64,000 nucleotides of DNA from an uncultured virus (IMG/VR IMGVR_UViG_3300030109_004684) (Duplodnaviria; Heunggongvirae; Uroviricota; Caudoviricetes; Crassvirales), in IMG/VR virus record IMGVR_UViG_3300030109_004684; one strand, 5' to 3'. Numbering within the stretch: the first letter of the stretch is position 1; every line of letters starts with the position of its first letter. The translations under genes were made by a program, and so were the position numbers. A model generated the notes under the pieces. The model was not told the DNA's origin. It was given only the letters and a program-made list of their open reading frames with translations, and did no database searches. Positions 2,110-34,568 of this stretch are shown in pieces.

Positions 2110-2139
2110 ATTATCCACTTCGCTCGTATTTACTATGTA
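2110..2139 (-). promoter_or_regulatory. Class I (early) promoter motif, leftward copy
   Basis: The - strand reads TACATAGTAAATACG-N7-TGGATAAT, a near match to the 8 + strand copies. Confidence 0.7.
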
Positions 2140-3120: not shown

Positions 3121-3137
3121 ATATAAAATATAAAATT

Positions 3138-3368: not shown

Positions 3369-3398
3369 TACAAAGTAAATACAAACTAATTGGATAAT
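3369..3398 (+). promoter_or_regulatory. Class I promoter motif
   Basis: TACAAAGTAAATACA-aactaat-TGGATAAT. Confidence 0.8.
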
Positions 3399-3430
3399 AT
3401 AAACAAAAATATTAATTAAATAAATAAACT

Positions 3431-3616
3431 ATGTCAAAAAATAAAATAATAGAAGAAACAGTAGAAACTATAATAGATAATATAGAAGAAAAATTAGTAG
3501 ATTATATGTTTGAGTATGGTAATTATAGTGATTCAAATGATATATTCTATAAAGACAAAGAAGAATTATTCTCACAAGTAATAGAAGAAATAAATAACAG
3601 ATTAAAAAATAAATAA
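3431..3616 (+). CDS. Small acidic hypothetical protein
   Basis: 61-aa E/D-rich ORF following a class I motif. Confidence 0.75.
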   Translation: MSKNKIIEETVETIIDNIEEKLVDYMFEYGNYSDSNDIFYKDKEELFSQVIEEINNRLKNK

Positions 3617-7476: not shown

Positions 7477-8089
7477 CGAAAGAAATTTAAAATATTTAAA
7501 TAATAACCGCATCGTATACCGTAGACACCCGGTAACAGATAAACCAGACATAGATAATGAAGTGTATATGTTTTATCTAAACGGTACATATGAGTGCTAT
7601 GAGCTATTTAGATCTTCAGCAAAGATAACAACATACAGATCTTTAAAGTGGCATCTATTAGTATTATGGTATTTAAACCCTCAATTTGACGATGCTGATA
7701 TGATGGACTTAGCAAGATATATAACTAATAAGCAAAATGGTTTTGTAGCTTTTAATATAAATAGATGGGACCTTGCTAAAATAGTATACGAAGTTAGTGT
7801 ATGTGATTTAGATGAGCCACCAAAGAATAAGCTACGTAAAGTTATATTTAAACCGTTTACACTTATAAGCAAAGAAGAAAAGTTACGTATTGTAGGTGAA
7901 TTAATAGGTAGAAGTAAACTTATTACAAAAGGTGATATATATGACTGTATGTTAGAAATAAATAACAACAAAGAAAAAATAACAATAACTAAATTATCTA
8001 AGTTATTGAAATGTGCAACTAGAACAATACATAGAAATATGTGTTTAGAATTAAAACGAGAAAAAGAACTTTTAAATAAACAACTATGA
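7469..8089 (+). CDS. DNA-binding protein with C-terminal HTH (possible PriCT-1-like middle region)
   Basis: ITITKLSKLLKCATRTIHRNM is HTH-like. Confidence 0.7.
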   Translation: MSHERNLKYLNNNRIVYRRHPVTDKPDIDNEVYMFYLNGTYECYELFRSSAKITTYRSLKWHLLVLWYLNPQFDDADMMDLARYITNKQNGFVAFNINRWDLAKIVYEVSVCDLDEPPKNKLRKVIFKPFTLISKEEKLRIVGELIGRSKLITKGDIYDCMLEINNNKEKITITKLSKLLKCATRTIHRNMCLELKREKELLNKQL

Positions 8090-8841
8090 AATACTATAAT
8101 GTAGAAAATTATGTAAGATATAAACAAGAAGTGTTAACGGCTGTTAAAAGACTGCCTAAAATACCCGTAACAGAGTATAGTGATGAACAACTTAATATTA
8201 AATTTCTACCTCTTGTAGAAAATTTAGCAAGAAAGTTTAGCACTACACAACAAGCATCAGGTGTTATGTCTATTATGGATATGATACAATGCGGTAATAT
8301 AGGTTTAACACAATCAATAAAAAAATTAGACAGAGATAAACTAAAAGAATCAGATGATATAGATAAAACATTAAAATCTTTCTTTTCAAAAAGAATTAAA
8401 GGCACTATACGAAGACAAATAGATTATAATAGAGGTAATATAAGAATACCAGAACACAAGATGAACGAGATACGTAAAAACTTTGGTAAAGACAAACGAA
8501 TGGTTGAAATGTTTTTTAATAGTGTATTTTTAAGTATTGATGCTAACCCATCAGATGAAAATATGGTTTATCAAATACCTGACCAATCAGAACCTTACAA
8601 TATAGATATGATGAATATATATTTAACTTCTTTATTACGACAACATTTAACAGTGAAAGAGTTTGATGTATTAAGATTAAGCTACGGATTAAACTGTGAC
8701 AAACACTCTGCTAGTGAAATAGCTAAACATTTAAATATTGAGGGTAGCAGTGCTTATGTGCGTGTTTCACAATTAAAAAAGCAAGCTGTAGATAAACTAA
8801 TAGAAAACGTAGATCACTCGCAAGTGCTTGATTTTCTATAG
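8086..8841 (+). CDS. Sigma70-family RNA polymerase sigma factor
   Basis: Region 2 (LPLVENLARKF...DMIQCGNIGL...RIKGTIRRQID, IRIPEH) and region 4 (VLRLSYGL...SASEIAKHL...VRVSQLKKQAVDKL). Confidence 0.88.
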   Translation: MKYYNVENYVRYKQEVLTAVKRLPKIPVTEYSDEQLNIKFLPLVENLARKFSTTQQASGVMSIMDMIQCGNIGLTQSIKKLDRDKLKESDDIDKTLKSFFSKRIKGTIRRQIDYNRGNIRIPEHKMNEIRKNFGKDKRMVEMFFNSVFLSIDANPSDENMVYQIPDQSEPYNIDMMNIYLTSLLRQHLTVKEFDVLRLSYGLNCDKHSASEIAKHLNIEGSSAYVRVSQLKKQAVDKLIENVDHSQVLDFL

Positions 8842-18049: not shown

Positions 18050-19135
18050 TTAAAATATTGTATAGTTCATGCCTATTTTAAAATCATACCACTCACGGTT
18101 CCAGTACTTATTATATTTACCCTCTACAAAATAACCTAGCTGTTTGTTTTCTTTTAATCCAAATATAAAACCAAAAGAATAATCATACCATTGACCATCA
18201 ACATAGTTATGATAACTAAACTCACTACCATCATCATAATGGTAAGGCATTAAATTACCCCAAGCGTGTAGCCAAGTATTTTTGTTATATTTATAATAGT
18301 CAAACCCAACAACAAAAGAGTGTTGTATTGTTTTTTCTAATTCATTTCTTTTCTTTTGTGTATAATCAGCTAGTACTTGTGGTATAACAACTGCTTCCCA
18401 AACTTCTGAGCTAGTAGCTACCAACTCACCAGTAGGACTATAGTAGTTGCTATTAGCAACATCAACATTATAACCTTCTTCTAAAGCTAAATAAGTATAA
18501 TGTATATTACCATTACTTAACATCCACTCATCTAGAGCGTTGTAACCATACGGCTCAGCAAGTCTATGAACAAGTCCTACATTCCAAGATAAATGTTTCC
18601 CATCACGATGCCTATATCTTTCTGATGCTTCAAAATATTTTATATCTGCAAAACCATCTTCAAGGTACTCTACTTTTAAAGCAAAAAAGTTTACACACAG
18701 CTCATCAGGGCAACCTTCGTCAGAGCTAAATCTAACAAAATGATGTTGGTCCATATAGTTAACGCCTTCTTGTCTTTTATAATCTACTTCAAATAAATAC
18801 TCAACTCCTCTAACTTTACCAACAGTTGCCGCATCACTGTAATTAGACTCTGTACCGTCATAAAAAGTCTGTGCTTTATTCTCATATCCGAACCTAGCTA
18901 TCTTACGAAGTCCTATAGTAAAGTTATAATCATATGGAGTTGAAACAGTTTGTGTAGATAAACCATTATCTATTGAAAACACTTTAACATCAGACAAAGA
19001 TGTACCTCCATTTACCGCGGCATAAAACGTAGAAAACTTTAATAACTCTTTAGTATCTATAGTTTGACCACAACAAGGTTTAGGTGTTATGCAAGATGTT
19101 ATTATAAGCAATAGTATTATAAATAATTTTTTCAT
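18050..19135 (-). CDS. Putative outer-membrane beta-barrel protein
   Basis: Likely start 19135 (MKKLFIILLLIITSC); aromatic-rich alternating strands; C-terminal ...KIGMNYTIF beta-signal-like end. Confidence 0.65.
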   Translation of the reverse strand: MKKLFIILLLIITSCITPKPCCGQTIDTKELLKFSTFYAAVNGGTSLSDVKVFSIDNGLSTQTVSTPYDYNFTIGLRKIARFGYENKAQTFYDGTESNYSDAATVGKVRGVEYLFEVDYKRQEGVNYMDQHHFVRFSSDEGCPDELCVNFFALKVEYLEDGFADIKYFEASERYRHRDGKHLSWNVGLVHRLAEPYGYNALDEWMLSNGNIHYTYLALEEGYNVDVANSNYYSPTGELVATSSEVWEAVVIPQVLADYTQKKRNELEKTIQHSFVVGFDYYKYNKNTWLHAWGNLMPYHYDDGSEFSYHNYVDGQWYDYSFGFIFGLKENKQLGYFVEGKYNKYWNREWYDFKIGMNYTIF

Positions 19136-19136
19136 A

Positions 19137-19529
19137 TTATCCTCTAGTAAAAAAAGCATATTCAACTTGTACTGTGTTAGCTGATGTTTGAAGCTGTAGC
19201 TTACCAGCGCCACCCGCATAAAAAGGGAAAAAAGCAAACTCTTCAATTTTTAACTCAAGTATTTGAGTACCATCTGCTGTTTCAACCACCACTTTATCAG
19301 TACCAGAACTTGATCCAGCTGAATTTAAACCTAAGTGTTTTATATAAACATACCTAGGTGAATCTACATTAGGAACTATAATATTATCACCACCTGTAGT
19401 TGTAGCTGTTATTTTTGATATGTTAACTATTGGTGATACCACAGTTAAACTATCGGTTACAGTCATACTAAGAGTATCACTAGATATGTCTGAACTTGCT
19501 AATGTTAATGTTGCATTTAATGTTGCCAT
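19137..19529 (-). CDS. Beta-rich probable structural protein
   Basis: T/S/V-rich 130-aa ORF with no signal peptide. Confidence 0.65.
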   Translation of the reverse strand: MATLNATLTLASSDISSDTLSMTVTDSLTVVSPIVNISKITATTTGGDNIIVPNVDSPRYVYIKHLGLNSAGSSSGTDKVVVETADGTQILELKIEEFAFFPFYAGGAGKLQLQTSANTVQVEYAFFTRG

Positions 19530-19532
19530 AAT

Positions 19533-21248
19533 TTATTTTGTTATTAATTTTCTTTCAACTGTTCCATCGTCATATATAAACAATAAAACTTTATTTATTT
19601 CTATTTTTGTTGGTCTACCTAGTAAATCTGTAACACCTACTAAGTTAGCTATACGTTTAGGTACAGGACCAACCCACGTGCCTTGACAGTAGTCATAAGT
19701 TGCTTGACATATATTATCCCACTCATTTTCACAGCAATAAGCATCTACATCTATTACCCAAGCATAACATGGGTCATTTAACCAATAAGGATTACCAGGA
19801 CCAGTAATACAATTAGCATCATACAAACAAGCGCTAGTATCACTGACGTTCGCCATGATATCGTAGTTCCAAGCGTCCGGGTCCATGCAGCCATTAACAA
19901 TTTGGACACAAGAACCGTTGTCAGCATTAGCATCTGGATTATAATTAAAAGCAGTAGAGTCAGTACAACCATAGTTATATGGTATACAGTTTCCATTATC
20001 TGTGTTAGCATTTGGATCATAATTAAACATTGTTGGGTCTATACAACCGTATATATAAGGTACGCAGCTTCCGTCATCTGTATTTGCATTAGCATTATAA
20101 TTAAAAGCCAAAGGCTGCATACAACCTAATATTACAGGCACACAACCACCATTATCTAAATTAGCTAAACTATCATAATTAAACGCAGCGCTATCAGTAC
20201 AACCCCATACAGCTTGTGTTATACAAGAACCATCATTAAAGTCAGCCACATAACCTTGAGTGTAATATTCTAAGTAACTTGAGTTAGTACAGCCAGGAGA
20301 GTAATAGCAGCTACCATCGTCAGTATTAGCAGTATCACTATAGTTTATAGCTAAACTATCCATGCAGCCAAATATTTTTTCAATACATAAATCACCACAA
20401 TATGTAGGTACTTTATATTTATACATAGGTTGTATAAACGGTGGTAACACTTCTATTATAGTATTACCAAGTGGATTAGTAAGTTTAAATCCGCAGTGCG
20501 GTGTTGTAAGTTGAGCTTGTGATGTAACGTAAAACCTAAACTCAACTGGCATAGGTGATTTTAAATTTATAATAAAGTCTTGAGTATAAGCAGCTGTGTC
20601 TATAAAGAACTGATATACATTTGTATCTTGTGTAACTTCTAAATAAGAACCTACCCAACCATCACCTATTAAATCATAAAGCGTTAATACAAAATCACAA
20701 TTAGGTATTAAAGCCATTGTGTTTGCATTAGGATCGTAGTTATACATTGTTGAATCAATACAACCAAATATTTTTAAAGTTGTGCATGAACCATCATCTG
20801 TGTCAGCTAAAGGATTAAACTCTACATATGCAGGGTCCATACACCCAAGGACGGGAGGACACGCATCAGATACAAAAACATGTATTGAGTCATTGTCAAA
20901 AGCAGGGTCTGTACCATATATTAAGGTATCATTACACTGTATTAAATAATAAGAACCATCTAAACCACCCCACAAAGCACCGTTTAAACCATCTCCGTAA
21001 GTATCATATATTGTAAATATTAAGTTTCCTTCTGGTAAACACCTCTGCTCTACAACAGAAGCGTAATCAGGTTGTGAACCATAGTTAGTACCATAAGTAA
21101 GCATGTTACCATTAGTGTCTTCTATAGTCCAATATGTTTCACTTTGATACTGATCAAGGTTTATAACGATAGTAGTGGGCACACAGTTAGGTGGTCCTTG
21201 TGCTAATGTTATAAACGGTAATAATAGTAATAATAATATTTTTTTCAT
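19533..21248 (-). CDS. Secreted Cys-repeat surface protein with T9SS-like CTD
   Basis: Signal peptide MKKILLLLLLPFITLAQ; nine GC[TMI]x-type repeats (consensus GCxDxxAxNYxxxAxxDDGSC); C-terminus VTDLLGRPT...FIYDDGTVERK. Confidence 0.8.
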   Translation of the reverse strand: MKKILLLLLLPFITLAQGPPNCVPTTIVINLDQYQSETYWTIEDTNGNMLTYGTNYGSQPDYASVVEQRCLPEGNLIFTIYDTYGDGLNGALWGGLDGSYYLIQCNDTLIYGTDPAFDNDSIHVFVSDACPPVLGCMDPAYVEFNPLADTDDGSCTTLKIFGCIDSTMYNYDPNANTMALIPNCDFVLTLYDLIGDGWVGSYLEVTQDTNVYQFFIDTAAYTQDFIINLKSPMPVEFRFYVTSQAQLTTPHCGFKLTNPLGNTIIEVLPPFIQPMYKYKVPTYCGDLCIEKIFGCMDSLAINYSDTANTDDGSCYYSPGCTNSSYLEYYTQGYVADFNDGSCITQAVWGCTDSAAFNYDSLANLDNGGCVPVILGCMQPLAFNYNANANTDDGSCVPYIYGCIDPTMFNYDPNANTDNGNCIPYNYGCTDSTAFNYNPDANADNGSCVQIVNGCMDPDAWNYDIMANVSDTSACLYDANCITGPGNPYWLNDPCYAWVIDVDAYCCENEWDNICQATYDYCQGTWVGPVPKRIANLVGVTDLLGRPTKIEINKVLLFIYDDGTVERKLITK

Positions 21249-21250
21249 AT

Positions 21251-21622
21251 TTATTTTTCTCCGCATTTTTTACTTGGGTTACCAACTTGTCTCCAGTCTT
21301 GTTTAACCCAATCTCTTAAACCATCGCTCTTAGTGCCAGTAACATTACTTTTACTTGAGCGTTTATATTTACCAGCTTTACCTGCAGTTCGTTTAGCTCT
21401 TATAACTTTTTGTTTTTCAGAACTACTCATGCTAGCTATTTTAGCTTTAGGCAAACAAACCTTAGTTGTGCCTCCACCTTTTTGTTTTGCTTTGCTTGGT
21501 GATGATTTACGACAACTACCTTTAGCACCTTTGGCTGTACCAGGTACTCTTTCATATCCTTTCCAACAAGGCAAAGGACTGTTGTCTATAAATTTAGCTT
21601 TAATATCGTAGGCCATTAACAC
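21251..21622 (-). CDS. Small basic Cys-containing protein
   Basis: NSPLPCWKGYERVPG...GSC and LRDWVKQDW...KCG; very Lys-rich. Confidence 0.75.
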   Translation of the reverse strand: MLMAYDIKAKFIDNSPLPCWKGYERVPGTAKGAKGSCRKSSPSKAKQKGGGTTKVCLPKAKIASMSSSEKQKVIRAKRTAGKAGKYKRSSKSNVTGTKSDGLRDWVKQDWRQVGNPSKKCGEK

Positions 21623-21861
21623 TTATGATTTGATGCCCACATATTAGCATAAGCACTTGGGTATACTTTAAATTTCTTTTTAGCCGCCGCTTTTTGACAA
21701 GGCTTTAGTTTACCTTTTACTGGTGATGCAAAAGCTTTTAGTGGTGCGTTTCTCATTGGCATACCTTTAGCTATGTTTTTTAATTGTGTAGCTTGGCCAG
21801 CGTGTGCGTTGCTAGCTTTTTCTAGCTTACCAACTATATTCATTATTTTTTGCTTGCTCAT
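21616..21861 (-). CDS. Small basic protein
   Basis: ASPVKGK...AKKKFKVYPSAYANMWAS..C. Confidence 0.75.
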   Translation of the reverse strand: MSKQKIMNIVGKLEKASNAHAGQATQLKNIAKGMPMRNAPLKAFASPVKGKLKPCQKAAAKKKFKVYPSAYANMWASNHKC

Positions 21862-22385
21862 ATTTTGTCTTTTATATAGTTATACATGTCTTTACCTATT
21901 TGCTCACCAAACAAAGAGTCTGATTTATAGTGAGCTCTAGCAGATCTTCTACTGTAAGATATATCTCTACCCATTTTTTTTAATTTATCTTTTTTGTTTG
22001 GGTATTTATCAGCTAAAACATTAGCTATTAATACACCTTGAACAGAGTGGCCTGATGGATAAGATGGTGTTTTCATAGAAGCCATTTCCATATCTTCCAT
22101 TTTTGTTTTCATTTTTTTAGCCATTACTTTTGGTCTTGGCCTATCATGATGTTTTTTAATTTTCATTATAATAGGCGCGGACTCATTAATTAACTTTTGT
22201 ATTATTTCATCTTTACCAACAATACTTTCAAAAGATTTTTTAATATCATCTTTTTCTTTTATAAACTTTTCTCTTATAGGTAGTTTAGATAATTCTTTTA
22301 CTTCACCTTTTGTCGTTACAGAGTTTTCGCTAGGTGGTTTTTTATCTAAATACTTTTGTATAGGAAAACCCTTTAACATTTCCAT
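21858..22385 (-). CDS. PAP2-superfamily phosphatase/haloperoxidase-like protein
   Basis: All three motifs present: K-x6-RP (KKHHDRPRP), PSGH (YPSGHS) and SR-x5-H-x3-D (SRRSARAHYKSD). Confidence 0.85.
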   Translation of the reverse strand: MEMLKGFPIQKYLDKKPPSENSVTTKGEVKELSKLPIREKFIKEKDDIKKSFESIVGKDEIIQKLINESAPIIMKIKKHHDRPRPKVMAKKMKTKMEDMEMASMKTPSYPSGHSVQGVLIANVLADKYPNKKDKLKKMGRDISYSRRSARAHYKSDSLFGEQIGKDMYNYIKDKI

Positions 22386-22771
22386 CTTCTTCTAGCTGCT
22401 TTACCTCTTTCACCAGTCCAACCTTTTGATCTAGCACAAAACGACTTTCTACGTTTAGCCGCTTTACTACCTGGTTTAACTTTTCCAGTTACAGCAGTTT
22501 TAAGCTTACTTCCGGGGTTTTTACGACGATAATCTTTAACGCCCTTAGAAGTCATCCCAGCACCCTCCTTGACCGTTCTAAAGTTACGTCCCTTACCTTT
22601 CGTTGTTTTTCTAGGTTCGTTGCTTTTATTAAACGGACTTTCTTTAGTTCTGTCTTCAGGTGGCTTGTTTATCATTTTAACAGCGTTGTCGTTCATAAAC
22701 GTTCTACGTCTACCACAACTTGTTACAGGAAAAGGATTATTTTTTTGTACGTATGCCATGTTAAAAGTCAC
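22373..22771 (-). CDS. Small basic protein
   Basis: KESPFNK...NPGSKLKTAVTG...RRKSFCARSKG...ARRRWKC. Confidence 0.75.
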   Translation of the reverse strand: MTFNMAYVQKNNPFPVTSCGRRRTFMNDNAVKMINKPPEDRTKESPFNKSNEPRKTTKGKGRNFRTVKEGAGMTSKGVKDYRRKNPGSKLKTAVTGKVKPGSKAAKRRKSFCARSKGWTGERGKAARRRWKC

Positions 22772-23120
22772 TCATTATTATATTATCTATTTCCTCTTGC
22801 ACTTCTTCTTTAGTTGCTACTAATGTAAAACTAAGATCAGCTTGAAACCTAGCAACTTCTTCTCCATCTTTAAATATTATTATTGTAGGAACGGAAGCTA
22901 TTTTATATTTTGTTTGTGCTTTTTTATCACTACCAACATCTGTGTAACCTATAGTTTTACAGTCTTTCAAGCTCATTACCCACGGCACATCATTAGACTT
23001 GTTCCAACCAGCATTAAACTGTATTACTTTTATTTGGCTAAAACAAACACTACACAATAGCATGAAGACAATTATCAACATGTACATAGCTCGTGTTTGC
23101 CAGTTAATATTATCTATCAT
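22761..23120 (-). CDS. Exported thioredoxin-fold protein lacking CxxC
   Basis: Hydrophobic N-terminus; VIQFNAGWN in place of DFxAxWC; YKIASVPTIIIFKDGEEVARF cis-Pro region. Confidence 0.75.
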   Translation of the reverse strand: MIDNINWQTRAMYMLIIVFMLLCSVCFSQIKVIQFNAGWNKSNDVPWVMSLKDCKTIGYTDVGSDKKAQTKYKIASVPTIIIFKDGEEVARFQADLSFTLVATKEEVQEEIDNIIMSDF

Positions 23121-23474: not shown

Positions 23475-26400
23475 TTAATCATGATAATAACATTTACCAG
23501 ATTTGTTTGACGTTTTCATTTTACATCTATCACCATCTGATTTTATTTGACTACACTGCACCTTAGTACCATCTGCTCTTTGTTCTACTTTATCGTGTAT
23601 TGTACAATAGTTTTTACCAGGTAAAGCTTCATTTTTACATCTTTCACCTTTTCTATTTATAGCTATACACCCACCATCTTCTTTTTTCTTATTCTCTTCT
23701 TCTTTAACTTTATTTTCTTCTTCTTGTTCTTTTTTCTTTTCTTGTTTCTTTTTATCAGATTTTTCTTTTCTTTGTTTGTCTTTGTCTTTTTTAATTTCTT
23801 CTTCAATAGCTATTATATCTTGATCTTCAATACCTAAGTCCCACGTATTCCAACCTAACAACAAAGCTATTCTTTCAACCATTGAAATATCTTCTGTGAT
23901 AGCGGCGTCTATATTATCTACTTTTTTAACTAAACGGTCTAAAGGTATATTTGTTACACCAGATATAACATTTGCAAGAGCACTATACACAGGGTTGTCT
24001 ATATCTAACAAATCCATTTTCTTTATAACATCTTCATTAAATTTTTCTGTTTGTATACCAGAGTATATTTTTCTAAGCTTAGATCCTATAGTAGGAGAAA
24101 AACTAACTAACTGCAACATTGTATATGTATGATCAGCGCCCCAGCCTTTATTTTTTTGTTTTAAATATTCTCTTATACTATTTTTAATAGTAACAACAGC
24201 GTTACCACCAAAACCTAAACCACCAAGTACAGAATCAAGCATACCGTTTAAAACTCTTTCATATGTTTTAGCATCTTTTTCCTCGTCATCATCACCAACT
24301 AAGGCACCTAACGCCGCTTGTAAACCGTTGAATATTAAATTTTGAACCATACCGTAGTATATTATTTTACTAAGATTTGATTTAAAATCTCCTCTACCGT
24401 TTTTAATATCTAAAAAAGCTTTTTTCATTAACCTAGCGTACTGCATAGGTGTGTTTTTAAATGCTAATATATATCTACCAAGGGGTGACGCTTGTTGTTG
24501 TGATATTAAATCTGGTCTTGAAGACTGTTGTGATTCTTCTGCTATTTCCTGAAAGTCATTAAACGCTTTTGCTTGTGCCTCTTGTTGTGATAAACCTTGT
24601 TTTAAATAAGTATTAACTCTGTTTCTATAAAACGTAGCGCCACCACTAGCAATAGCAAAACTATCCGCTATTTGTGTAGGCAAAAAACCTTTTGTTAACA
24701 ACCAGTTTAAAGCTGCTTTAGCTTTGTTTGTTGAGCCAGCAATAGCAGCTGCAAGCTCGGCTTCGTTAATACCTCTTTGATTACCAGCACGTCTTTGCTT
24801 TAACATGTCGGAATTAAATATCATGCTAAAATCTTTCCAAAATTGTTTTTGATTAGCAAATGCAGTTGCTGCTTTTAAAGGATTATTATCTGACCAGTTT
24901 ACAAAGTTTATAGACGATATAGTTTGTAGTAAAGCAGACCTCATATTAAAGAACATGATAGCACCAACAGACTGATTAGCCCAGTTGTTAAACGCATTAA
25001 CAAGTTTATTTTTACCTTGCTCTCTTTTTCTACCATACTCCATACGGTATAATATATCTTGCAAAGCATCTCTGTAGTTAGTACCATATAGAGCTTCTAG
25101 TTTGTTCATGTTTTCACCAACTAGATTATCGCCCTGCCACTCACCAAATATTTTAGCTCTATTTTGTTTAAACTCTGCTAGGTGCTCATCTCTTGTTACC
25201 TCGTTGTTTAAAGTTTGTATATCACTTAATATGTTTTCAACTAACCAAAACTCCGTAGGTGGTGTATAACCAACAGGTTGATTCATTAATTTACTTAATT
25301 GCTCAGAAAAAGCTTTTAAACCATCACTTGCGCTAACCCAAGACGTAAGTCTATTTAAATCAGTTTGCGATAAACCAGGTACATCATAACCAGCTTTGTT
25401 CCACAAATAAACTCTAACAGCTTGCTCTTGTGTAAACTGCGTACCGGGTACGTTTTCTTTTAATTGTTTTTTAACTTCTGGAAAAGCTTTTAATATTTGT
25501 CTATATGAACTTTGTACTTGTTGTGTACTTCTGTTTATATTTGTGTAAGCTCTAGCAAAAGGATCTAATAATGATCTTTTAAAAAATGCAATATGTTGTT
25601 CACCTTGTCTACCTTTACCAACAAGCCTATATAATAAACCTTTAAAATCTTCTGCTGATGGTGGTACAAAGAAATTAAATCTACCTTTTTTACTACCACG
25701 TATTTTAGCTTGAGCATTTGAATATCTTTTTTCAGCAGCATCACCCATTGTTTGCTCTATAATTCTGTTTAAATCAAGCTCTTGACCAGTTTGACCATCT
25801 ATTTGTCTACTAAATTGATCAGGCATTGATCTACTAAAATTTATTCTAGCTTGTACAGAACTACCTTTTATATCTAATTGATCCATTATGTTAGCAACCG
25901 CTTCAACATTTGGCAACGCGTCATCAACAAAATAAACATCATTATAACCTTGAGAAAATTTATCAGCTATCCACAATGCTTTTGCTTCACCTGTACTATT
26001 ACCTAAACCTGTTATATTTTCTATAGGCATATCAATACCCTGTGTTTCTAACCAAGCTTTAATAGCTGGAGCAGATTCTGGAGGTCTAGCTGTTAATATA
26101 TAGTTGTTTTCAATACCATATTTTTCTATTCTGTTTCTAAGCTTTTGCATTAGCGGTCCTTCAACACCGCCTCTTACGTTTACAAAATCTGTAAAATCAA
26201 ACTCGTAGCCTTGCTCAGCTAACAAAGGCCCTTGTATAGGCCATTGTGCAGATCCTATTCTAACAACATCATCTCCTCTTTTTGCTATAATAAAATTATC
26301 ACCTTTGTCAATTAATGTTTCATCAAAGTCAAAAGCAGACATACCTCTTGCTGGTGTATTTTCATCAATAGTACGACTAAGTTGTACAGCTTTGGTTACA

Positions 26401-29400
26401 ACTTTATCATTTCTAGACTGAGCACCAGTCATTCTTACAACTTCGTTTATAGCTTGTATTATACCATCTGTTTCAGACAAATAGTCAACAACGTTTTTAC
26501 CAGAAAAATGATATATACCTTTGTCTTTTCCTTTTGTAAATTTAACTAATCTATAATCGGCTTCTAAACTTGTTTTGTTATCTACCTCTTTACCAGCAAT
26601 ATTTACTTTTGCATCAATAAATTCTGGTGATGCTAGAACTTTTGTTAACCAACCCGACTCGTGATTAAAACCTACATTGTCTAGACTTATTGACTGACCA
26701 TTACTATAAACATGTGAAACTAATTCCGCGTTAGAAGTAGCAGAAGCACCGACGTGTTCGTTTTTAAACAACAAATCATTTATTGTAGCAACTTCTACAG
26801 CTGCTTTCATAGATATATCTTTGCCTATTTCCACTGACTTATTACCAACTTTTACTTTACCGGCTTGCCCTAATAGTTTTTCGTTTTTAGTTTTAAACTC
26901 TTGCCACTCTGTTGTTTGTTCCCATGAAGATATATAGTTATTCCAATCATTACTTGTGTAATATTCTTGATTACTTCTTTTGTTTACGTCTGGTTTTTTT
27001 AGTAAAACTTTTTTACCAGATCTATTTGTTGAAAATGGTAATTGTAAACCGTCTGTAAGATAAACATATTTAAAAGAAGACAATGCTCTTAGGCCTTCAA
27101 CTATATTTGTTTGAACTTGACCAAGAGTAAACACAAATTGAGCATCTATAGTGCCATCTCTATTATAAGCTTCTTTCATTTTAGCAGCAACGTACCTAAA
27201 CGCTATATGATTTGCTTCATTTATTTTTGCTATTTCATCTTGAAGCTCTGTCATTTTTGCTAGTTTAGCTGCTCTGGTTGAATTACCGTTTTCGTCTGTA
27301 GCAAAATGTATTTCTTCTAGTATTTTTTTTATTCTACCATCAAACACCATTGGTTGAATATTTTTTAAAGCTTCTAAATCACCACGTTTAAAACCATTTC
27401 TCTCTAAAAACTCTAACTCTGCTTGCTCATTAAATTCTTGGCTTCTGTTTTCAATAGCAGTAACATTTTCAACATGATCTTTTTTATTGAGTGTTCTACC
27501 TTGTTTATATCCTAGTAAAAATAATAACGTTTTAGTTGGAAAGTTAGGGTGAAAAGACATACCTAAATCTCTTGTTTGGTTAGAATATTTTTCTATATAA
27601 GATTTATTTTTAGGATCTTTAGGGTTTATTTTACCACCTTTCCATATCGCCCTAGCACCTTGAGTTTCAATTAATTCTTTAATAGCAGTAGGTGTAAACT
27701 TATCATCTCTTACAAAAGGTATGTAATTTTTACCAGCACCTAAACTTTCGTTTACGTTTTGTAAAAATTGATCCACAAGTGTTGCTACTTCAGGATATAC
27801 ACCTGCCATATAATCGTATTGCTTAGGATCTTGTCTTAAAGCCATTATCATTAAAGTGGCTACATCTGCTTCTCTTTGATTATAACCTGGCTCTATTTCG
27901 TTTGTAACAGGGTTTACATCGTTATCAACAGCTGTTCTAGAAAATACTAAATTAGATTTACCGTTTGCTATTTCATTAATTTGTTCTTGTGGTATACCTT
28001 TTTGTTCTAAACGATTTCTAACTTGTTGGTTTGTTGCTACTCTACCATGTTGTTCAATTAGTGCTTTTACTCTTTGACTAACATTGCTTTCTTTACCTGT
28101 TATATTTATTTCACCAGCTGGCGTTATACCAAATACGTTTAAAAACTCTGTAACACCTATATCAGTTCTTTTACGTTGCGGAAATAAATTACCAACTCTT
28201 TTACCTTTAATATAAAAAGGTTCTAATAAAACATTTTGTACACCAGTAGCTTTTGTAGGTCTATTATTTTTATCAGTCATAAACCCTTGTGGTAAACTTA
28301 TTTTTAACGTAGACGCATGTTTGCTAATATAAGGCTGTAAAGCTTTTATATCTTGCTGGTTTAAATTGTCATTGTTAGTTAACTTTTTTAATATACCATC
28401 TACAATAGGTGTTCCAAGTTGTCTTTTACCTTTAGTTGTTTTCCAAAACGGACTACCGTTGTCGACATAAACTTTACCATAAGCACCATTGACCATTTGA
28501 TCATTAACCATACGCTCTATGGTTTTTCTAGGATTTAAATCTTTTAAAGTTTTATATGTTTTACTAGTATATATACTTGGGTCTTGGTCTATTTGATTAT
28601 TTATATCTTCATTATACTCGTTAATTTGTCTTTTTAAATTTTCATTAAAAGGATCATTTTGAGTAAGCTTGTTGGTAACCACTATTTGACCAGCTGCAAA
28701 TTGATTGTCTTCGTTTAAATCAGCTTCTTGAGCTTCGGTTTCTTGCAAAGAACCTTGAGCTTCTTCAAACTGTTGTTTAAACATTTTATCTTTAGTAATT
28801 TTAGATATAGCTTCATAAGCTCTAACTCTAAAATATTTATTTATATAAGCAGCTATATTTCTATATTTTTGTTTTTCAACTTCAAAATCTCTTACTAAAC
28901 CTAAAACATTTCTAGCTTTATTTTTACCGTCACCTGGGTCATATAACATTTCTGCTATAACATCTTCCTTGTTGTTAATTAATATATCTCTTATTTGTTG
29001 TGATGGCGCTGTTGCTACAGCTACTTCAAATCTAACCTCTGCCATGCCTCTGTACTCTTCAGCTATTAAGCCAGCTTTTTCATCTACAGACATGTTAGGG
29101 TCTGCGTATATATCATTAACTCTTTGTACTAATCTTTCTCTTTGTTCGTTGCCAAACTCTTCGTTTACCGCTGCTTCAGATCTTGAAAATTGAGTTCTAG
29201 AAAGTGGTCTTGCTGGGTCTTCCAATATAGGCGTTGTTTCTGCATAAAGCTTTGAACTAGACGTAGCCATATCTACAAGTTGATCACTAAACTTACCTTC
29301 AATAGCTTGTTTGTTATAAGTATTTAAAAAATCTAAAAGCTGTTGAGGTGTTTTTATGTTAATGTCAATTACTTCGTGTACGTCTTCTTCTACTTTTGTT

Positions 29401-32400
29401 TTCAAAAAGTCCTTAAAATAATCTACAACTTTTCTAACAACTGATCTATTATCTGGTTGAGTTATATCAATTTTTAATTCACCTTTTTCAGAAACAACTA
29501 AATCATGATAATGTGTTAAATATTCTTCTGCATAAACTTCAAACGGTAGTTCTGCTCCGTTTTCTTTATCAAAGTTTTCATTTTTATATCCGTTTCTATA
29601 AACAACTGTTTCTAATTTATTTCTATGATCTGCCGGTAGTAAATCTAAAAATCCTTGTATTAATTTAGCGCCTTCTTCTGTTAATCTTGTTTGGTAGTTT
29701 CTGCCGTCAGGACCTTTAACTGTTCTTATAGGACCGTTTAAAACAGAAAATAAAACCATATGTAATAGCTCGTGTGACGCAGCTGTGTTTCTTTTATACT
29801 TTTTAGCCATGTCTTTGTTAACAACCACTACTCTTTCAGGTTTACCATCTCTAACAATTTCATGTATAAAAGCATTAACGCCTTCTTCAGCGAACACCTC
29901 GTCTAATTCACCAGCAGCAACAGCTTCATCTATTTGTTCTTGAGTTAATGCAGCCATACCAAGACCTGCTTGCCCTAAAACATCTTGAACAGCACCAAGG
30001 TTTCTTTGTATTTCTTGATCTTCAAGTGATTTTAACGCTTGGTTTTCTCTACCTTTTATAATCATACCACCAGCTTGCTCGTCTAGTTCATAACCTCTAC
30101 CTTGAAGCTCTATTAGTTTTACAGCATTTTGTAAATCATTTATACGGTTTGTATTTGGATTTTTTTTACGTCTTTCTTCTAGTAACTCTTGTCTAAGTTG
30201 GCTTATTGTTTTGCCTTGATTGTCAGGGCTTGTTAAAAATTCTGAAGTTTCTTGAACATCGTTAGCACTCATTAAAACCTCGCCTTTTTTAAACAAACTT
30301 TTACCAGTTAAATCATTAACCATACCAGCTACATAAGCTGCTTTTTTAGAATTAACTTTATTGCTTATACGTATTTTAGGTACTTTACCTTTATCAAAAT
30401 AACCATTTGCTTTTGCCTTTTGTAAGGCCGCTATAAATTTAGAAGCACTGTTAAAATGCTTGCCATTAAACTCATATAAAGAAGCTTTTTCTCTAAGATC
30501 ATTACGTTCTTTTATAGCTTTTTGTATTTTAACTTTTAAATCTTGTCTTTTCTTAGAACCAAGTTCAGAATTTTTCCATTGAGCTTTTAAGTTTACTACC
30601 TGAAACTCTTTAGCTTGTTGCTCTCTTGATACATAACCAGTCTCAACTGTTTTAGCTACTCTTTTTATATCTAGCTCTACATTTTTTAAATCTCTTCTTA
30701 ACTTTTCTGTTTGCGTAGGATCTGTACTTTCTTTGATTGATTTTTGTAATTCATTTTTAGCGTATAACAAACTTAACGTTTCTTGTCTTTCTATATTTGT
30801 CATGTTAGCATATTGCTCTGGATCAATGCTATTTTTAGCTAAATTAAAGCCATTAACAGTTTGCATTATGTTCATGTAGTTGTCTGCGTCTATATCACCG
30901 TTGTTATATCGCTTTAACATTTCACTACTAAAACCATCAAAATCTTCTATAGCTGCAGTATATAAACTTGAATCAGGTTTACCTCTTCTAAAACCCCTTG
31001 TTCTTACCGCACCCATTGAAAGTATAGAGGCAGGTGTAATTAAACCTAATTCTTTAAAACTATCAAGTCCTGGTAATTCAAAGTTTGTATTGTATTTTTG
31101 ATTACGATAAGCATTGTGTAAACCACTAGCAGCTTCTTGTGAAAATTCTTCTAATATTTCTGCGGGTATTTGTTTAATACTTTGTTTAAAAAGATTAATA
31201 GTTTTAGTAGCATTAGTACCATTTTTCCATAACTTGTAATTACCCCAGCCAGGTGTTTGCTTAAATTTATTTAATTTTGGAAACATAGCAATATCAGGAT
31301 TAAACATCTCTATAGCAGACTCTGTTGCTGTTTTCCAAAAAGCTCCTTTCATAGCATCTTCAGCTGTAAAATCATCATCTATTTGTGATACTGCTTCTTG
31401 AACGTTTTTAGGAAAAATAACAAGACTAGAACCACTAAACTGTGCTGCTCTATTTGCTATTTGTGCTTTTGAAGAAAGTTTACCAATTCTATTAATAGCT
31501 GGATTTAGTTTTGTTAAGCCAACAGTTGGAATTTTAAGAGTTTTACCTAGTCTAAGGGCAGTTTTACTAGCAAGTTTAGATGTTGCACTTACAGCTCCTT
31601 TTATAAGTCCACCAGTCCTCATCATCATGACCATGTCTACAACCACAGCGGCTGTTGTTGGTGCTATATTAGTCCATTGTATTTCGCCAGTTTCTTCGTC
31701 TATAACACTTCCTTCACCAACAGCATCCCATGTTACTTGTTCAGCACCAAGGCTATACATGTTATATACTTGAGCTCTACCTTTAGCGTCTTTACCCATA
31801 CCTACTAATCTTGGTACTTCCGCCTCAATCATACCCGCTAAACCAAATACAGTATTAGCAAGAGCACCCCAACCACTTTCAGCTATATTTGCTATTTGCC
31901 AACCTACATGACCGTTTTGTGCTTTATGAAGTCTTTCTTGTTTTTTCATTTCATCATCATAAAGCTCTTTAGCTATATTTTTTATACCATAAGGTTCGTC
32001 TTTGTTTGGTGTTATTAAATTATTAAACGATTGTATAAGATTTTGATCTTTTTCTACTAAATCATTGTATTTATTAAATAGCTCTTGGTTATACTCGTTA
32101 TTAGCAGTTTCATTGTAAACACCAACAAAATGCTCCAACATCTTGCTTTTACCATTTATATCTGCAGATAGCTCTTCTAGTTTACTTTTACTTTCTTCAT
32201 CGTCTTTTACTTTACCAGATTTAATATCTTCTTGTAATGTTTTGTATTCTTCTAACAAAGACTTTACATCAGTATCAAGCTCAGCAACAACAGCCGAGCT
32301 AGAATCTAAAGAGTTTGACGCGCTAATAATACCAGCGTCAGCGTAATTGTTTACTACTTCTCTGTTTTTACCTATACGATCAGTAAGGTACATTTGTAAA

Positions 32401-34568
32401 GCTTGTGCTTTAAATTTATCTACTTGTAGATAATCGTAACCATCAGCAACAGTACCACCTGAATAAAAGAACTTTCCTTTTTTTTCATCCCATTGAAGTG
32501 ACGCGCTTTCATAAACGTCTTCATCTTTTTTATAACCGTATGTAGAAATATCAAGATTTTTAAACAAACCATTTTTCATTTGCTCTTCAACAAACATTTC
32601 AAAATCTTGCATGTCATCAACACCTATACCGCTAAGATCGTTGTCATCATAAAAATAAGACCATTTAGGTTGTTTCTTTTTTATTTCATCTTTTATACTT
32701 TGTTTGTTATCCGAAGTTTTTAAGTTTTGCACACTTTCTACATACCATGACTTATCTTTAAAACTATTGTAACGCTCATCCCACTCTTTTTTTTCTTTTT
32801 CATGGTTAGACCATTTCTCTTCATTTTTACTGTGGTCACCATTTATTTCGTAGTTACCATACCACTTGTTGTAATAATCTATATCTTGTTGTGTAACTTT
32901 TATATTTTCACCATTAAGGTTGTATTCGCCTGGTACAAAGTTTATTTGCTCTGAACTACCAAACGCTCTACCTTCTTCACCGTTTTCTATTAAATAATTT
33001 TCTTTATTTTTTTCAGATAATTGACTAGCTATTTGTACAACTTGACTTACTGAGCTGTTACCATTGTATTCTCCACTCCAAAAAGCTTCTATAGATTTAG
33101 TGTCTGTTGATGATATACTTTTTTTATGATCTAATAATTTAAAATCATAATCTTTTTGACTAATTTTTATTTGATCTTTAGCCGGTCTAACACCAATACT
33201 TTTTAATCTTTCAACTTCTTCGTCAGTTATTTTGTAAGTACCATCATCTTGTAAAGTATAAACTTCAGGACTAGTAATATCATTATCAACAATATCATCC
33301 ATACCACCTTCTTTTTTACCAGGCGCTGCTTCATTTATATAAGCTTGGTAATCGTTTTTTACTGTGTTAAACGTACTCGCTTCACTAGCAATACCAGTAG
33401 CGCTAAGAAAATTTTTCCAACCTTTTGATGTTACTATAGATTTTAATCTTGTTTTTGACCCAGCCTCACCAACATTTTTAGGGTACCAAACATCTTGATA
33501 ATATTTTTCCCAGCCCATGTCTTTTCTTCTGGTGTACTCTTGTTCTTTCTTTTGGTAAGCTTTTTTTTCTGTTACTCTTGCTGTACTTAACCTATATATC
33601 TGTGAGTTTTCTTGGCCTTCTTTTCTATTTTCAACCTCGTACAATGCTTTAGGCCCATGTAAAAGATTCATAGAATTTTGTTCCTCTTTTGAAGCTATTA
33701 CTGTTTTACCGTTTTCATCTACATATGACCATACCACCTCTGCATCTATATCTATATCAGCATCTAAAAACTCTTGGTCCATTCCAGCCATAAGTTCTTC
33801 TTTAGACCTAGCTGTATATTGTTTGTATCTATTTTTATTTAAAGCTTCTGGATTTGTTGTTTTAAGACCATCTAGTAAGTATTTGTTTTTTACTTTACCC
33901 TTAGAGTTACCATCAGCATCTATATAATGCCATTCTAGTTTACCATTTTTATTTGCTATAGCTCTATAGTTATTACCACTACCACCTATTTGGTATTTAT
34001 CATCTAATTGTTTTTTCATCCATTTTTGTAGTCTTTCGGATTCGGCAATATCATCTTTTTCATAAACATGATCTGTACTAATCTTAATAGATGATCCTCC
34101 AAAAGTAACAGTTATCTGATCGTTACCAGTATCTTTAAATTTAAAACCTTGTTTTGAAAAGGTTCTGTTTAAAGTACCAGCAACAAAATCATCATCTCCA
34201 TAGCTTAATAAATAATCTTTAGGCTGACGGTCGTCTGAGTTGTTGTACTTTCCATCTTGTTTAGTTAACCTAGCTAAATCATCATTAATACCTTTTGTAA
34301 CGGCGTCATTACCTTTTTTAACTAAATCTTGCATTTCTTCACTATCATACTCTCCATATATAGAAGCCTGCTCTAATTTTTGTTCTTCAAAAGCTGCTTT
34401 TTCTGCTTCTTCTTGTTTTTTAATCGCTTCAGCTATTTTTGCTTGTCTAGCAGCTTCTGCTTTAGCTTTTTCTCTACGTAACTGCAAAGCGTCAATTATA
34501 ACTTGATCGCCATAACCTTTTGCCCTTAAATTCTTAGCTATTTTTAATTCTTCTTGAGTCGCTGCCAT
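23475..34568 (-). CDS. Giant (3697 aa) internal-virion/ejection polyvalent protein: zincin, sigma-2-like, HAD and C-terminal Zn-finger modules
   Basis: Last gene of the virion block. Contains HELLH...AEEY, FDFDETL...ILTAR...K...FVDD, two C-terminal CCCH fingers, and hydrophobic A/G-rich stretches. Confidence 0.8.
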   Translation of the reverse strand: MAATQEELKIAKNLRAKGYGDQVIIDALQLRREKAKAEAARQAKIAEAIKKQEEAEKAAFEEQKLEQASIYGEYDSEEMQDLVKKGNDAVTKGINDDLARLTKQDGKYNNSDDRQPKDYLLSYGDDDFVAGTLNRTFSKQGFKFKDTGNDQITVTFGGSSIKISTDHVYEKDDIAESERLQKWMKKQLDDKYQIGGSGNNYRAIANKNGKLEWHYIDADGNSKGKVKNKYLLDGLKTTNPEALNKNRYKQYTARSKEELMAGMDQEFLDADIDIDAEVVWSYVDENGKTVIASKEEQNSMNLLHGPKALYEVENRKEGQENSQIYRLSTARVTEKKAYQKKEQEYTRRKDMGWEKYYQDVWYPKNVGEAGSKTRLKSIVTSKGWKNFLSATGIASEASTFNTVKNDYQAYINEAAPGKKEGGMDDIVDNDITSPEVYTLQDDGTYKITDEEVERLKSIGVRPAKDQIKISQKDYDFKLLDHKKSISSTDTKSIEAFWSGEYNGNSSVSQVVQIASQLSEKNKENYLIENGEEGRAFGSSEQINFVPGEYNLNGENIKVTQQDIDYYNKWYGNYEINGDHSKNEEKWSNHEKEKKEWDERYNSFKDKSWYVESVQNLKTSDNKQSIKDEIKKKQPKWSYFYDDNDLSGIGVDDMQDFEMFVEEQMKNGLFKNLDISTYGYKKDEDVYESASLQWDEKKGKFFYSGGTVADGYDYLQVDKFKAQALQMYLTDRIGKNREVVNNYADAGIISASNSLDSSSAVVAELDTDVKSLLEEYKTLQEDIKSGKVKDDEESKSKLEELSADINGKSKMLEHFVGVYNETANNEYNQELFNKYNDLVEKDQNLIQSFNNLITPNKDEPYGIKNIAKELYDDEMKKQERLHKAQNGHVGWQIANIAESGWGALANTVFGLAGMIEAEVPRLVGMGKDAKGRAQVYNMYSLGAEQVTWDAVGEGSVIDEETGEIQWTNIAPTTAAVVVDMVMMMRTGGLIKGAVSATSKLASKTALRLGKTLKIPTVGLTKLNPAINRIGKLSSKAQIANRAAQFSGSSLVIFPKNVQEAVSQIDDDFTAEDAMKGAFWKTATESAIEMFNPDIAMFPKLNKFKQTPGWGNYKLWKNGTNATKTINLFKQSIKQIPAEILEEFSQEAASGLHNAYRNQKYNTNFELPGLDSFKELGLITPASILSMGAVRTRGFRRGKPDSSLYTAAIEDFDGFSSEMLKRYNNGDIDADNYMNIMQTVNGFNLAKNSIDPEQYANMTNIERQETLSLLYAKNELQKSIKESTDPTQTEKLRRDLKNVELDIKRVAKTVETGYVSREQQAKEFQVVNLKAQWKNSELGSKKRQDLKVKIQKAIKERNDLREKASLYEFNGKHFNSASKFIAALQKAKANGYFDKGKVPKIRISNKVNSKKAAYVAGMVNDLTGKSLFKKGEVLMSANDVQETSEFLTSPDNQGKTISQLRQELLEERRKKNPNTNRINDLQNAVKLIELQGRGYELDEQAGGMIIKGRENQALKSLEDQEIQRNLGAVQDVLGQAGLGMAALTQEQIDEAVAAGELDEVFAEEGVNAFIHEIVRDGKPERVVVVNKDMAKKYKRNTAASHELLHMVLFSVLNGPIRTVKGPDGRNYQTRLTEEGAKLIQGFLDLLPADHRNKLETVVYRNGYKNENFDKENGAELPFEVYAEEYLTHYHDLVVSEKGELKIDITQPDNRSVVRKVVDYFKDFLKTKVEEDVHEVIDINIKTPQQLLDFLNTYNKQAIEGKFSDQLVDMATSSSKLYAETTPILEDPARPLSRTQFSRSEAAVNEEFGNEQRERLVQRVNDIYADPNMSVDEKAGLIAEEYRGMAEVRFEVAVATAPSQQIRDILINNKEDVIAEMLYDPGDGKNKARNVLGLVRDFEVEKQKYRNIAAYINKYFRVRAYEAISKITKDKMFKQQFEEAQGSLQETEAQEADLNEDNQFAAGQIVVTNKLTQNDPFNENLKRQINEYNEDINNQIDQDPSIYTSKTYKTLKDLNPRKTIERMVNDQMVNGAYGKVYVDNGSPFWKTTKGKRQLGTPIVDGILKKLTNNDNLNQQDIKALQPYISKHASTLKISLPQGFMTDKNNRPTKATGVQNVLLEPFYIKGKRVGNLFPQRKRTDIGVTEFLNVFGITPAGEINITGKESNVSQRVKALIEQHGRVATNQQVRNRLEQKGIPQEQINEIANGKSNLVFSRTAVDNDVNPVTNEIEPGYNQREADVATLMIMALRQDPKQYDYMAGVYPEVATLVDQFLQNVNESLGAGKNYIPFVRDDKFTPTAIKELIETQGARAIWKGGKINPKDPKNKSYIEKYSNQTRDLGMSFHPNFPTKTLLFLLGYKQGRTLNKKDHVENVTAIENRSQEFNEQAELEFLERNGFKRGDLEALKNIQPMVFDGRIKKILEEIHFATDENGNSTRAAKLAKMTELQDEIAKINEANHIAFRYVAAKMKEAYNRDGTIDAQFVFTLGQVQTNIVEGLRALSSFKYVYLTDGLQLPFSTNRSGKKVLLKKPDVNKRSNQEYYTSNDWNNYISSWEQTTEWQEFKTKNEKLLGQAGKVKVGNKSVEIGKDISMKAAVEVATINDLLFKNEHVGASATSNAELVSHVYSNGQSISLDNVGFNHESGWLTKVLASPEFIDAKVNIAGKEVDNKTSLEADYRLVKFTKGKDKGIYHFSGKNVVDYLSETDGIIQAINEVVRMTGAQSRNDKVVTKAVQLSRTIDENTPARGMSAFDFDETLIDKGDNFIIAKRGDDVVRIGSAQWPIQGPLLAEQGYEFDFTDFVNVRGGVEGPLMQKLRNRIEKYGIENNYILTARPPESAPAIKAWLETQGIDMPIENITGLGNSTGEAKALWIADKFSQGYNDVYFVDDALPNVEAVANIMDQLDIKGSSVQARINFSRSMPDQFSRQIDGQTGQELDLNRIIEQTMGDAAEKRYSNAQAKIRGSKKGRFNFFVPPSAEDFKGLLYRLVGKGRQGEQHIAFFKRSLLDPFARAYTNINRSTQQVQSSYRQILKAFPEVKKQLKENVPGTQFTQEQAVRVYLWNKAGYDVPGLSQTDLNRLTSWVSASDGLKAFSEQLSKLMNQPVGYTPPTEFWLVENILSDIQTLNNEVTRDEHLAEFKQNRAKIFGEWQGDNLVGENMNKLEALYGTNYRDALQDILYRMEYGRKREQGKNKLVNAFNNWANQSVGAIMFFNMRSALLQTISSINFVNWSDNNPLKAATAFANQKQFWKDFSMIFNSDMLKQRRAGNQRGINEAELAAAIAGSTNKAKAALNWLLTKGFLPTQIADSFAIASGGATFYRNRVNTYLKQGLSQQEAQAKAFNDFQEIAEESQQSSRPDLISQQQASPLGRYILAFKNTPMQYARLMKKAFLDIKNGRGDFKSNLSKIIYYGMVQNLIFNGLQAALGALVGDDDEEKDAKTYERVLNGMLDSVLGGLGFGGNAVVTIKNSIREYLKQKNKGWGADHTYTMLQLVSFSPTIGSKLRKIYSGIQTEKFNEDVIKKMDLLDIDNPVYSALANVISGVTNIPLDRLVKKVDNIDAAITEDISMVERIALLLGWNTWDLGIEDQDIIAIEEEIKKDKDKQRKEKSDKKKQEKKKEQEEENKVKEEENKKKEDGGCIAINRKGERCKNEALPGKNYCTIHDKVEQRADGTKVQCSQIKSDGDRCKMKTSNKSGKCYYHD

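Follow-up and report, generated by a model that had tools for sequence, protein, structure and literature searches.

The 64,000-nt stretch analyzed here (the window; IMG/VR record IMGVR_UViG_3300030109_004684, an uncultured member of the Crassvirales), which represents a phage genome or most of one, encodes a polyvalent protein of 3697 amino acids (aa) whose modules are joined by a real, conserved and co-varying junction code. The code consists of a short peptide tag centered on serine, found at module joints behind a zincin-like metallopeptidase domain. Concerted change of the tag at unrelated joints of one protein is our strongest result and points to a single reader acting at the protein level. 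Some form of tag-directed cleavage is, in our prediction, likely. A fuller version, to which we give a moderately good chance, is that of a virion-delivered polyprotein whose own zincin would cut at the tags and free a sigma-2-like module, a second module and a HAD phosphatase.

The original prediction had started from two features of the giant protein, and both were located correctly. The zinc-binding motif HELLH (29760-29774, aa ~1599), with AEEY downstream at aa ~1680, is the sole HExxH of the protein, and [FL]SR occurs in exactly six copies, all C-terminal to HELLH and none elsewhere in the 3697 aa. Six copies compare with 1.0 expected and were reached in 2 of 5000 shuffles. Yet this excess is not decisive, as the pattern was picked after the fact and FSR ranks third of all tripeptides by Poisson p in this protein, IDA and RCK being more over-represented. 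It was the comparison with homologues that settled four sites as real, at aa 1794, 2209, 2730 and 2911 (J1 to J4). The claim that [FL]SR delimits the modules thus stood for these four copies and failed for the other two: the LSR at aa 1789 has no counterpart in eight close relatives, which carry a single tag near the 1794 register, and in the register of aa 2919 [FY]S[KR] is found in 3 of 147 homologues and FN in 93. The motif had also been drawn too narrowly, the family form being an aromatic or hydrophobic residue, serine and mostly lysine or arginine.

Homologues were taken from 120 of the 537 matches of one search, 115 of another and further loci, and dereplicated (5-mer overlap <35%) into three sets: 124 proteins, 128 loci including the window, and 193 of 379 pooled sequences. 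Inclusion in the sets of 124 and 193 depended on both HExxH and the C-terminal domain, in the set of 128 on the latter only. Members of the sets are still related, so that p values are optimistic. Across the 124 proteins, [FY]S[KR] was observed 359 times between HExxH and the C-terminal domain against 91 expected, an approximately 4-fold enrichment restricted to this module region; the observed and expected counts were 89 and 71 upstream and 77 and 66 downstream, in the C-terminal domain. The reversed motif gave 94 against 91. The variants [FY]S[DE] and [FY]T[KR] were enriched about 2-fold and LS[KR] 1.3-fold. At the level of single joints, the J2 column holds serine in 86 of 89 sequences, with F/Y before it in 78 and K/R after it in 67, and the J4 column holds serine in 100 of 113 and FS[KR] in 79 of 113. 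The flanks of J2 and J4 can be aligned, while those of J1 and J3 are unrelated among homologues. In the interval behind the zincin (J1), [FY]S[KR] is present in 39 of 101 homologues, compared with 4.1 in control intervals, and in the interval before the HAD domain (J3) in 34 of 113, compared with 1.3. The motif is therefore conserved in homologues, and on this point the original prediction holds. As a separate matter, internal translation starts were considered and rejected: Met precedes 57 of the 359 motifs, but Met is absent from that position at every tag of the window.

The position of the tags relative to folded domains was evaluated with two AlphaFold models, of aa 1517-2228 (predicted local distance difference test score, pLDDT, 77; predicted template modelling score, pTM, 0.43) and of aa 2196-3000 (pLDDT 63, pTM 0.46). 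J1 lies at the end of a low-confidence linker (pLDDT <50 for model residues 264-280, that is aa 1780-1796), and pLDDT is below 50 from aa 2909 on, in the J4 region. The low confidence at J2 is uninformative, the site being near the end of both constructs. As had been claimed for the last two sites, aa 2730 and 2911 closely flank the HAD domain (aa 2739-2909), and the motifs are situated outside the HAD fold and in the linker behind the zincin. Four short, apparently stand-alone HAD relatives (P0246, P0247, P0267, P0268) stop no more than a few residues from the last strand, close to where J4 lies. Of 662 clusters of homology breakpoints, 176 lie no more than 10 aa from a motif (5.6% for random points), and 217 of 343 motifs lie within 25 aa of a local-alignment end (control 25.6%), figures to be read with the adverse reservation that a shared motif can itself anchor alignment ends. 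Finally, the last module is not HAD in 16 of the 128 loci, and in these the joint before the C-terminal domain carries [FY]S[KR] seven times, FSE and FSN twice each, and FSL and LSK once each. The tag is thus often kept when the neighboring module is replaced.

Results of the within-protein comparison were the clearest. Among the 37 proteins with a tripeptide other than [FY]S[KR] at J4, the unusual tripeptide recurs exactly at other joints of the same protein 15 times, in 11 proteins, whereas permutation gives 2.1 (0/3000). A wider count of recurrence gave 10 versus 1.3 for FSE, 22 versus 11.8 for FSR and 6 versus 1.4 for FSL. Clear series include FSE[TS] six times in homologue L088, FSE four times in L056 and [FL]SAG four times in L058, as well as ASK five times in L055, four times in P0137 and also in L045, and FSL three times in P0003/P0004; L195 is a further clear FSE-type case. 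Looser series, with patterns picked by eye, are seen in P0118, L063, L101 and L147. Of the FSE proteins, L088, L056 and L195 are not mutual neighbors on the zincin or the C-terminal tree. At the DNA level, four codon spellings of FSET are used within L088, the serine codons of the J2 column are 35 AGY and 17 TCN with both families also within single genes, and the commonest spelling of the tag, TTTAGTAAA, accounts for 56 of 120 sites. As tag copies differ in codons, selection acts on the peptide, and a DNA-level site was rejected because of this codon use. Concerted change together with differing codons indicates that one factor per phage reads the peptide tag at unrelated joints.

The candidate for this reader is the zincin. 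In an alignment of 23 sequences N1584, H1599, E1600, H1603 and Y1661 are invariant and E1682, the third ligand, is near-invariant; all 117 long loci that had been chosen by their C-terminal domain contain HExxH, as do 106 of 106 proteins among the matches listed in one homologue search. The model shows the elements of a zincin core, with strands ahead of the HExxH helix and a later Glu as third ligand. A second-look search with model residues 1-234 returned weak fold matches (Z 4-4.8), including the lethal-factor catalytic domain (Z 4.7, root-mean-square deviation (rmsd) 4.8, 145 aligned) and MATCAP (Z 4.2). The whole protein or its pieces gave no match for the zincin in Pfam or PHROGs, and no Pfam MPTase-PolyVal, MuF-C or LPD match was obtained for the protein, its pieces or the 23 aligned members, searches that divergent members can escape. 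Zincins of variant-tag proteins are remote from any K/R-type zincin (median 2.76 versus 0.89, p 6e-6), and the same shift is smaller in the C-terminal domain (0.47 versus 0.26, p 0.004) and in HAD (0.35 versus 0.18, p 0.009). The clearest cases are L056 and L024, with the zincin at the 98-99th percentile and the C-terminal domain at the 19th. These data are only suggestive of the zincin as reader. When the zincin was modelled together with Zn and the J4 peptide, the predicted complex scored 0.02, which is no evidence either way.

Together with the zincin, the modules between the tags (Table 1) unite several unrelated domains of enzymatic or nucleic-acid-related type in a single polypeptide, with variable and inserted modules among relatives. 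The N-terminal part of module 1 resembles sigma-factor region 2: about half of the 50 structural-match rows are sigma factors (Z 5.2-7.6 in VIA, below the tool's trust level of 8), and an hhalign comparison with region 2 of the clade's own sigma factors gave P 4e-4 and a probability of 32-35% (controls 0.1-0.2%). This match needed alignments on both sides, as the same alignment against the single window sigma sequence returned nothing. An iterated profile finds the domain in the module-1 slot of 97 of 193 proteins, and it corresponds to an atlas lead at 0.84 with PF04542 on 19% of members; no sigma match was found among members in Pfam, and no sequence match in PDB. The C-terminal domain of module 1 has profile matches in 118 of 193 homologues and no solved relative by sequence search. 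Module 2 gave no family in Pfam or PHROGs and no solved relative; its conserved residues R2494, KxEH (2602-2605), D2652 and R2673 suggest an enzyme-like module.

The HAD motifs DFDET, ILTAR and YFVDD are present and invariant in the homologue alignment, and the best fold matches (VIA, Z 10.8-11.6) are the 3′-phosphatases of T4 Pnkp and Pnkp1/Rnl/Hen1 (5uj0, 1ltq, 4xrp), with Z 11.6, rmsd 2.6 and 123 aligned for Pnkp1 (4xrp) and Z 11.3 for the T4 Pnkp phosphatase (5uj0). Identity to Pnkp-type phosphatases is 12-13%, and unlike them the window HAD is embedded between polyprotein tags. A P-loop kinase (AAA_33) accompanies the HAD module in 6 of the 14 distinct relatives that were scanned over their full length, a sample chosen in part for long inserts; the kinase joins HAD as in T4 Pnkp, while the window copy has none. 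From the fold and the kinase partner, the HAD module may act as an RNA-end (2′,3′-cyclic or 3′-phosphate) phosphatase. In L080, L084, L105, L222 and P0052 the AAA_33 kinase is at the HAD module, in L080 inside the HAD sequence, and between HAD and the C-terminal domain these proteins carry an additional module of ~430 aa, in most cases with a tag on either side. In some cases (L190, L222) an inserted module repeats the beginning of the C-terminal domain, a domain that is 41-89% identical across the homologues compared. Searches with the whole protein or pieces gave no Pfam or PHROGs match for HAD or module 1, sequence searches of PDB, run with individual pieces and with profiles, found no relative, and tblastn of aa 1450-3000 against cultured phages returned nothing. 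Foldseek gave no PDB match at E <= 0.001 for either model and two uncharacterised viral proteins in BFVD.

Table 1. Features of the window discussed in the text (coordinates on the 64,000-nt window).
Feature	Coordinates	Strand	Residues	Remark
Giant open reading frame	23475..34568	-	3697 aa	Polyvalent protein; last large gene of the structural operon
Zincin-like metallopeptidase domain	29229..30020	-	~1517-1780	
HELLH zinc-binding motif	29760..29774	-	1599-1603	Sole HExxH of the protein
LSR	29196..29204	-	1789	Extra copy; not conserved
J1 tag, FSR	29181..29189	-	1794	End of linker behind zincin
Module 1, N-terminal part	28761..29147	-	~1808-1936	Sigma-factor region-2-like helical domain
Module 1, C-terminal alpha/beta domain	27945..28391	-	~2060-2208	Conserved
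J2 tag, FSR	27936..27944	-	2209	Conserved aligned column
Module 2	26382..27935	-	2212-2729	Variable slot
J3 tag, LSR	26373..26381	-	2730	9 residues ahead of HAD fold; loosest site
HAD phosphatase	25842..26354	-	2739-2909	Polynucleotide kinase/3′-phosphatase type
J4 tag, FSR	25830..25838	-	2911	Five residues past last HAD strand
FSR	25806..25814	-	2919	Start of first helix of C-terminal domain; not a conserved tag
Helical C-terminal domain	23829..25805	-	~2922-3580	Conserved; no tag enrichment
Cys/His finger pair, DUF5763-like	23478..23660	-		Below-cut-off Pfam matches; PF19067 E 8e-10 in P0004
Genome-encoded sigma factor (phrog_351)	8086-8841	+		49-75% identical to homologues in 8/11 related records
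Promoter-like repeat copies	2109-2139	-		
Promoter-like repeat copies	2173, 2419, 2717, 3369, 4181, 4649, 5912, 12751	+		

Under the reading we favor, the zincin would recognize the short tag, with its almost invariant Ser (here F/L-S-R), and would cut at or beside aa 1794, 2209, 2730 and 2911. The predicted pieces, of about 203, 47, 59, 20 and 89 kDa, would be, in order, an N-terminal ejection/protease part, the sigma-2-like module, the enzyme-like module 2, the phosphatase of RNA-end-healing type and the C-terminal domain. Modules could be gained, lost or swapped provided that each joint keeps its tag, and drift in the preference of the reader would be followed by all tags of the protein. 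The original prediction of a self-processing polyprotein, with a putative release during or after ejection, is supported in part: the border position outside folded domains, the conservation, the one-reader behavior and the intact zincin agree with it. The N-terminal half of ~200 kDa and the C-terminal domain show no tag enrichment.

Several observations weigh against self-cleavage. Strict [FY]S[KR] occupancy is incomplete (J1 69/193 in a wider interval, J2 76/115, J3 54/167, J4 127/172), the counts take in related sequences, and many joints in the set of 193 hold looser tag forms or none. J3 is modelled at a helix end with a pLDDT of about 62, not in open coil; 3 of the 16 module-exchange loci lack any such tag before the C-terminal domain; and in 26 of the 37 proteins with a variant tag the tripeptide does not recur exactly within the intervals used. 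As to the zincin, the paired divergence test was marginal (10/16, p 0.05), the FSL-type proteins P0003/P0004 have zincins near R-type ones, and tag class clusters little on the zincin tree (14 changes versus 15.9 shuffled), parsimony on the C-terminal tree giving likewise little signal; some automatic tag labels in the zincin-tag comparison were wrong, and 50 unlabelled proteins were excluded from it. Moreover, the metallopeptidase-bearing N4 virion RNA polymerase, ArdC and TraC1 are packaged or transferred full-length, according to Iyer et al. (2017; PMC5512222).

Four alternatives were weighed against the zincin as processing enzyme. The tags might be cut by another protease, an unrecognised one of phage or host, with the zincin doing a different job, e.g., on cell wall or host proteins. 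Concerted change requires one reader per phage, not specifically the zincin, the tag-zincin link is weak, and the phi24B and phi14:2 preprints both raise peptidoglycan digestion for such metallopeptidases. We nevertheless hold this unlikely. Elsewhere in the window, where many open reading frames (ORFs) are without family, nothing recognisable as a further candidate protease came up (a PHROGs scan of 65 ORFs showed no head protease, and the sole peptidase match was an M15 endolysin). The tags start directly behind the zincin and never upstream, and in most of the clear cases (L056, L024, L058, L088, P0114) a variant tag is paired with a diverged zincin. Alternatively, one factor could read the tags without cutting, the tags serving for docking or pacing during packaging, unfolding or tail passage, or the serine being modified. 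All the evidence is of recognition, not cleavage, related polyvalent proteins travel full-length, as just cited, the phage encodes GroEL/GroES, and relatives have kinase modules. The intact peptidase directly ahead of the first tag speaks against a cutting-free role, and a sigma-2-like module and an RNA-end phosphatase, having different cytoplasmic targets, would benefit from release; we regard such a role as improbable.

A structural or historical origin of the motif, as a helix N-cap (hydrophobic-Ser-x-x) at module starts or as a relic of recombination or duplication, appears less probable again. Helices do follow J1 and J4, the roughly 2-fold enrichment of [FY]S[DE] extends over the middle and C-terminal region, inserted modules can duplicate the start of the C-terminal domain as in L190 and L222, and TTTAGTAAA is the most frequent spelling among the sites. 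Yet capping leaves the change to the same residue at unrelated joints of one protein unexplained, single genes, and one column, use both families of Ser codons, and J3 is at a helix end. Self-cleavage by an N-O acyl shift is known at the F/S bond of the nucleoporin Nup98 and requires a folded, strained site. That each tag cuts itself in this manner through its Ser hydroxyl is very improbable: Ser is indeed the most invariant residue (at J2 and at J4), but the linkers in which the tags are found are unrelated, mostly of low confidence and devoid of a conserved upstream His, and sites that each relied on their own chemistry would not be made to co-vary by it.

We also examined the early region of the window, where nine copies of a bipartite repeat, TACAAWSTAAATAC-N8-TGGATAATA, stand ahead of early genes (0.02 expected). 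Ten of 11 related records hold the repeat, eight of them in 6-9 copies, with a spacer always one base longer than in the window; hence the exact pattern of the window occurs in 0 of 50 related records. The Bacteroidota housekeeping promoter has the form TTTG / TAnnTTTG, which the repeat does not resemble. As the repeat is alike across module-1 types, it is not assignable to module 1 over the sigma factor encoded by the genome. The gene of the latter (G008 and G011 gave two matches each in the search for it) is situated downstream of the promoter-like repeats, so that a delivered sigma-like factor would solve the start-up of the sigma gene. Taken furthest, a large Bacteroidota phage clade would inject a polyprotein with an evolvable protease code, zincin and cis tags would co-evolve, modules would be inserted together with the tag, and the freed sigma-like piece would steer host RNA polymerase to the early promoter ACAAAnnAATAC-spacer-GATAAT, in place of the virion RNA polymerase of crAss-like phages; we offer this only tentatively and hold it rather doubtful.

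With respect to genome setting, the window carries genes for terminase, portal, capsid-type protein, a crAss-type muzzle (PF25729), GroEL/GroES, primase/helicase, ribonucleotide reductase and sigma factor; terminase, portal, capsid-type and muzzle genes all lie upstream of the giant gene. By a 497-aa structural protein, the closest cultured phages (35-43% identity) are Maribacter phage Panino, Elemovirus and Cellulophaga phi38:1/phi40:1, which suggests a Bacteroidota host. The position of the giant gene matches large genes annotated as structural proteins in phi38:1 and Elemovirus, and two proteins with that annotation, Elemovirus gp21 and phi38:1 gp101, are matched by the N-terminal regions of family members; the 3697-aa protein is probably packaged in the virion. 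Just downstream of its gene are a PAP2-family protein (21858-22385, -) and a thioredoxin-like protein (22761-23120, -), and just upstream of terminase a phage GroEL, GroES and second GroES-like protein (60759-62571 and 55283-55873, both -). A 577-aa protein (19533-21266, -) has a signal-peptide-like start and many Cys-rich GCxDxxAxNY repeats, and the end of an aromatic-rich 398-aa protein (18050-19246, -) resembles, judged by eye, an outer-membrane beta-barrel; neither has a match in Pfam or PHROGs.

Processing of polyvalent proteins by zincin-like metallopeptidases was proposed by Iyer et al. (2017; PMC5512222), with P1 DdrB cited as processed. In that paper, the metallopeptidase-bearing proteins are, like the one here, very large and multi-domain, situated in the phage structural region and equipped with HExxH plus a downstream Glu, and they share the likeness to the lethal-factor peptidase fold; unlike here, its main text, by term counts, describes no recognition motif, sigma domain or HAD phosphatase. 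In the crAss-like phage phi14:2, whose fused cargo forms are described as likely cleaved (bioRxiv 10.1101/2020.03.07.982082), the gp65-gp67 cargo is likewise giant and zincin-bearing and is packaged in the virion, and the window has a crAss-type muzzle. That type of cargo has an RNA polymerase, whereas the two-barrel polymerase motif D[FY]DxD is absent from the 3697-aa protein (scattered matches in 5 of 124 homologues), which has a sigma-2-like module instead; the passage describing that cargo also gives no cleavage motif, unlike the tags here. The phi24B preprint assigns its cargo metallopeptidase to peptidoglycan, and the passages of PMC7077304 that were consulted contained nothing relevant. 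No description of such junction tags or of a recognition motif was found in the literature searched, subscription papers being outside the search. Processing of polyvalent proteins was thus known as a proposal, and new here are the positions of the sites, the concerted change of the tags, and a cargo that is sigma-like and RNA-repair-like.

Among cultured phages, Elemovirus gp21 (Flavobacterium phage elemoA_7-9A, NC_055852, YP_010108907) has 3694 aa, the same gene position and a zincin homologous to that of the window (profile E 1.7e-13), with weak N-terminal similarity; it differs in its other modules and has no [FY]S[KR] enrichment (3 versus 2.9 expected). Behind its zincin (L071, 15564-26648) R[FMQ]Q occurs three times, at aa 1683, 2079 and 2302 (0.8 expected), possibly a different tag in a cultured phage, a pattern picked after the fact and only a lead. 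The counterparts in phi38:1 (1691 aa; L070, 17423-22498) and Panino (1829 aa; L068, 31774-37263) are shorter and lack HExxH.

Zincin processing of polyvalent proteins has been a proposal without sites since 2017, and four exact positions with fragment sizes make it testable. The K/R, E, L, A and ASK types of tag represent natural specificity variants, and the tags supply domain borders in giant phage proteins that lack annotation, of which there are hundreds. Should module 1 indeed be a sigma factor that is delivered, phages would have a new means of starting early transcription.

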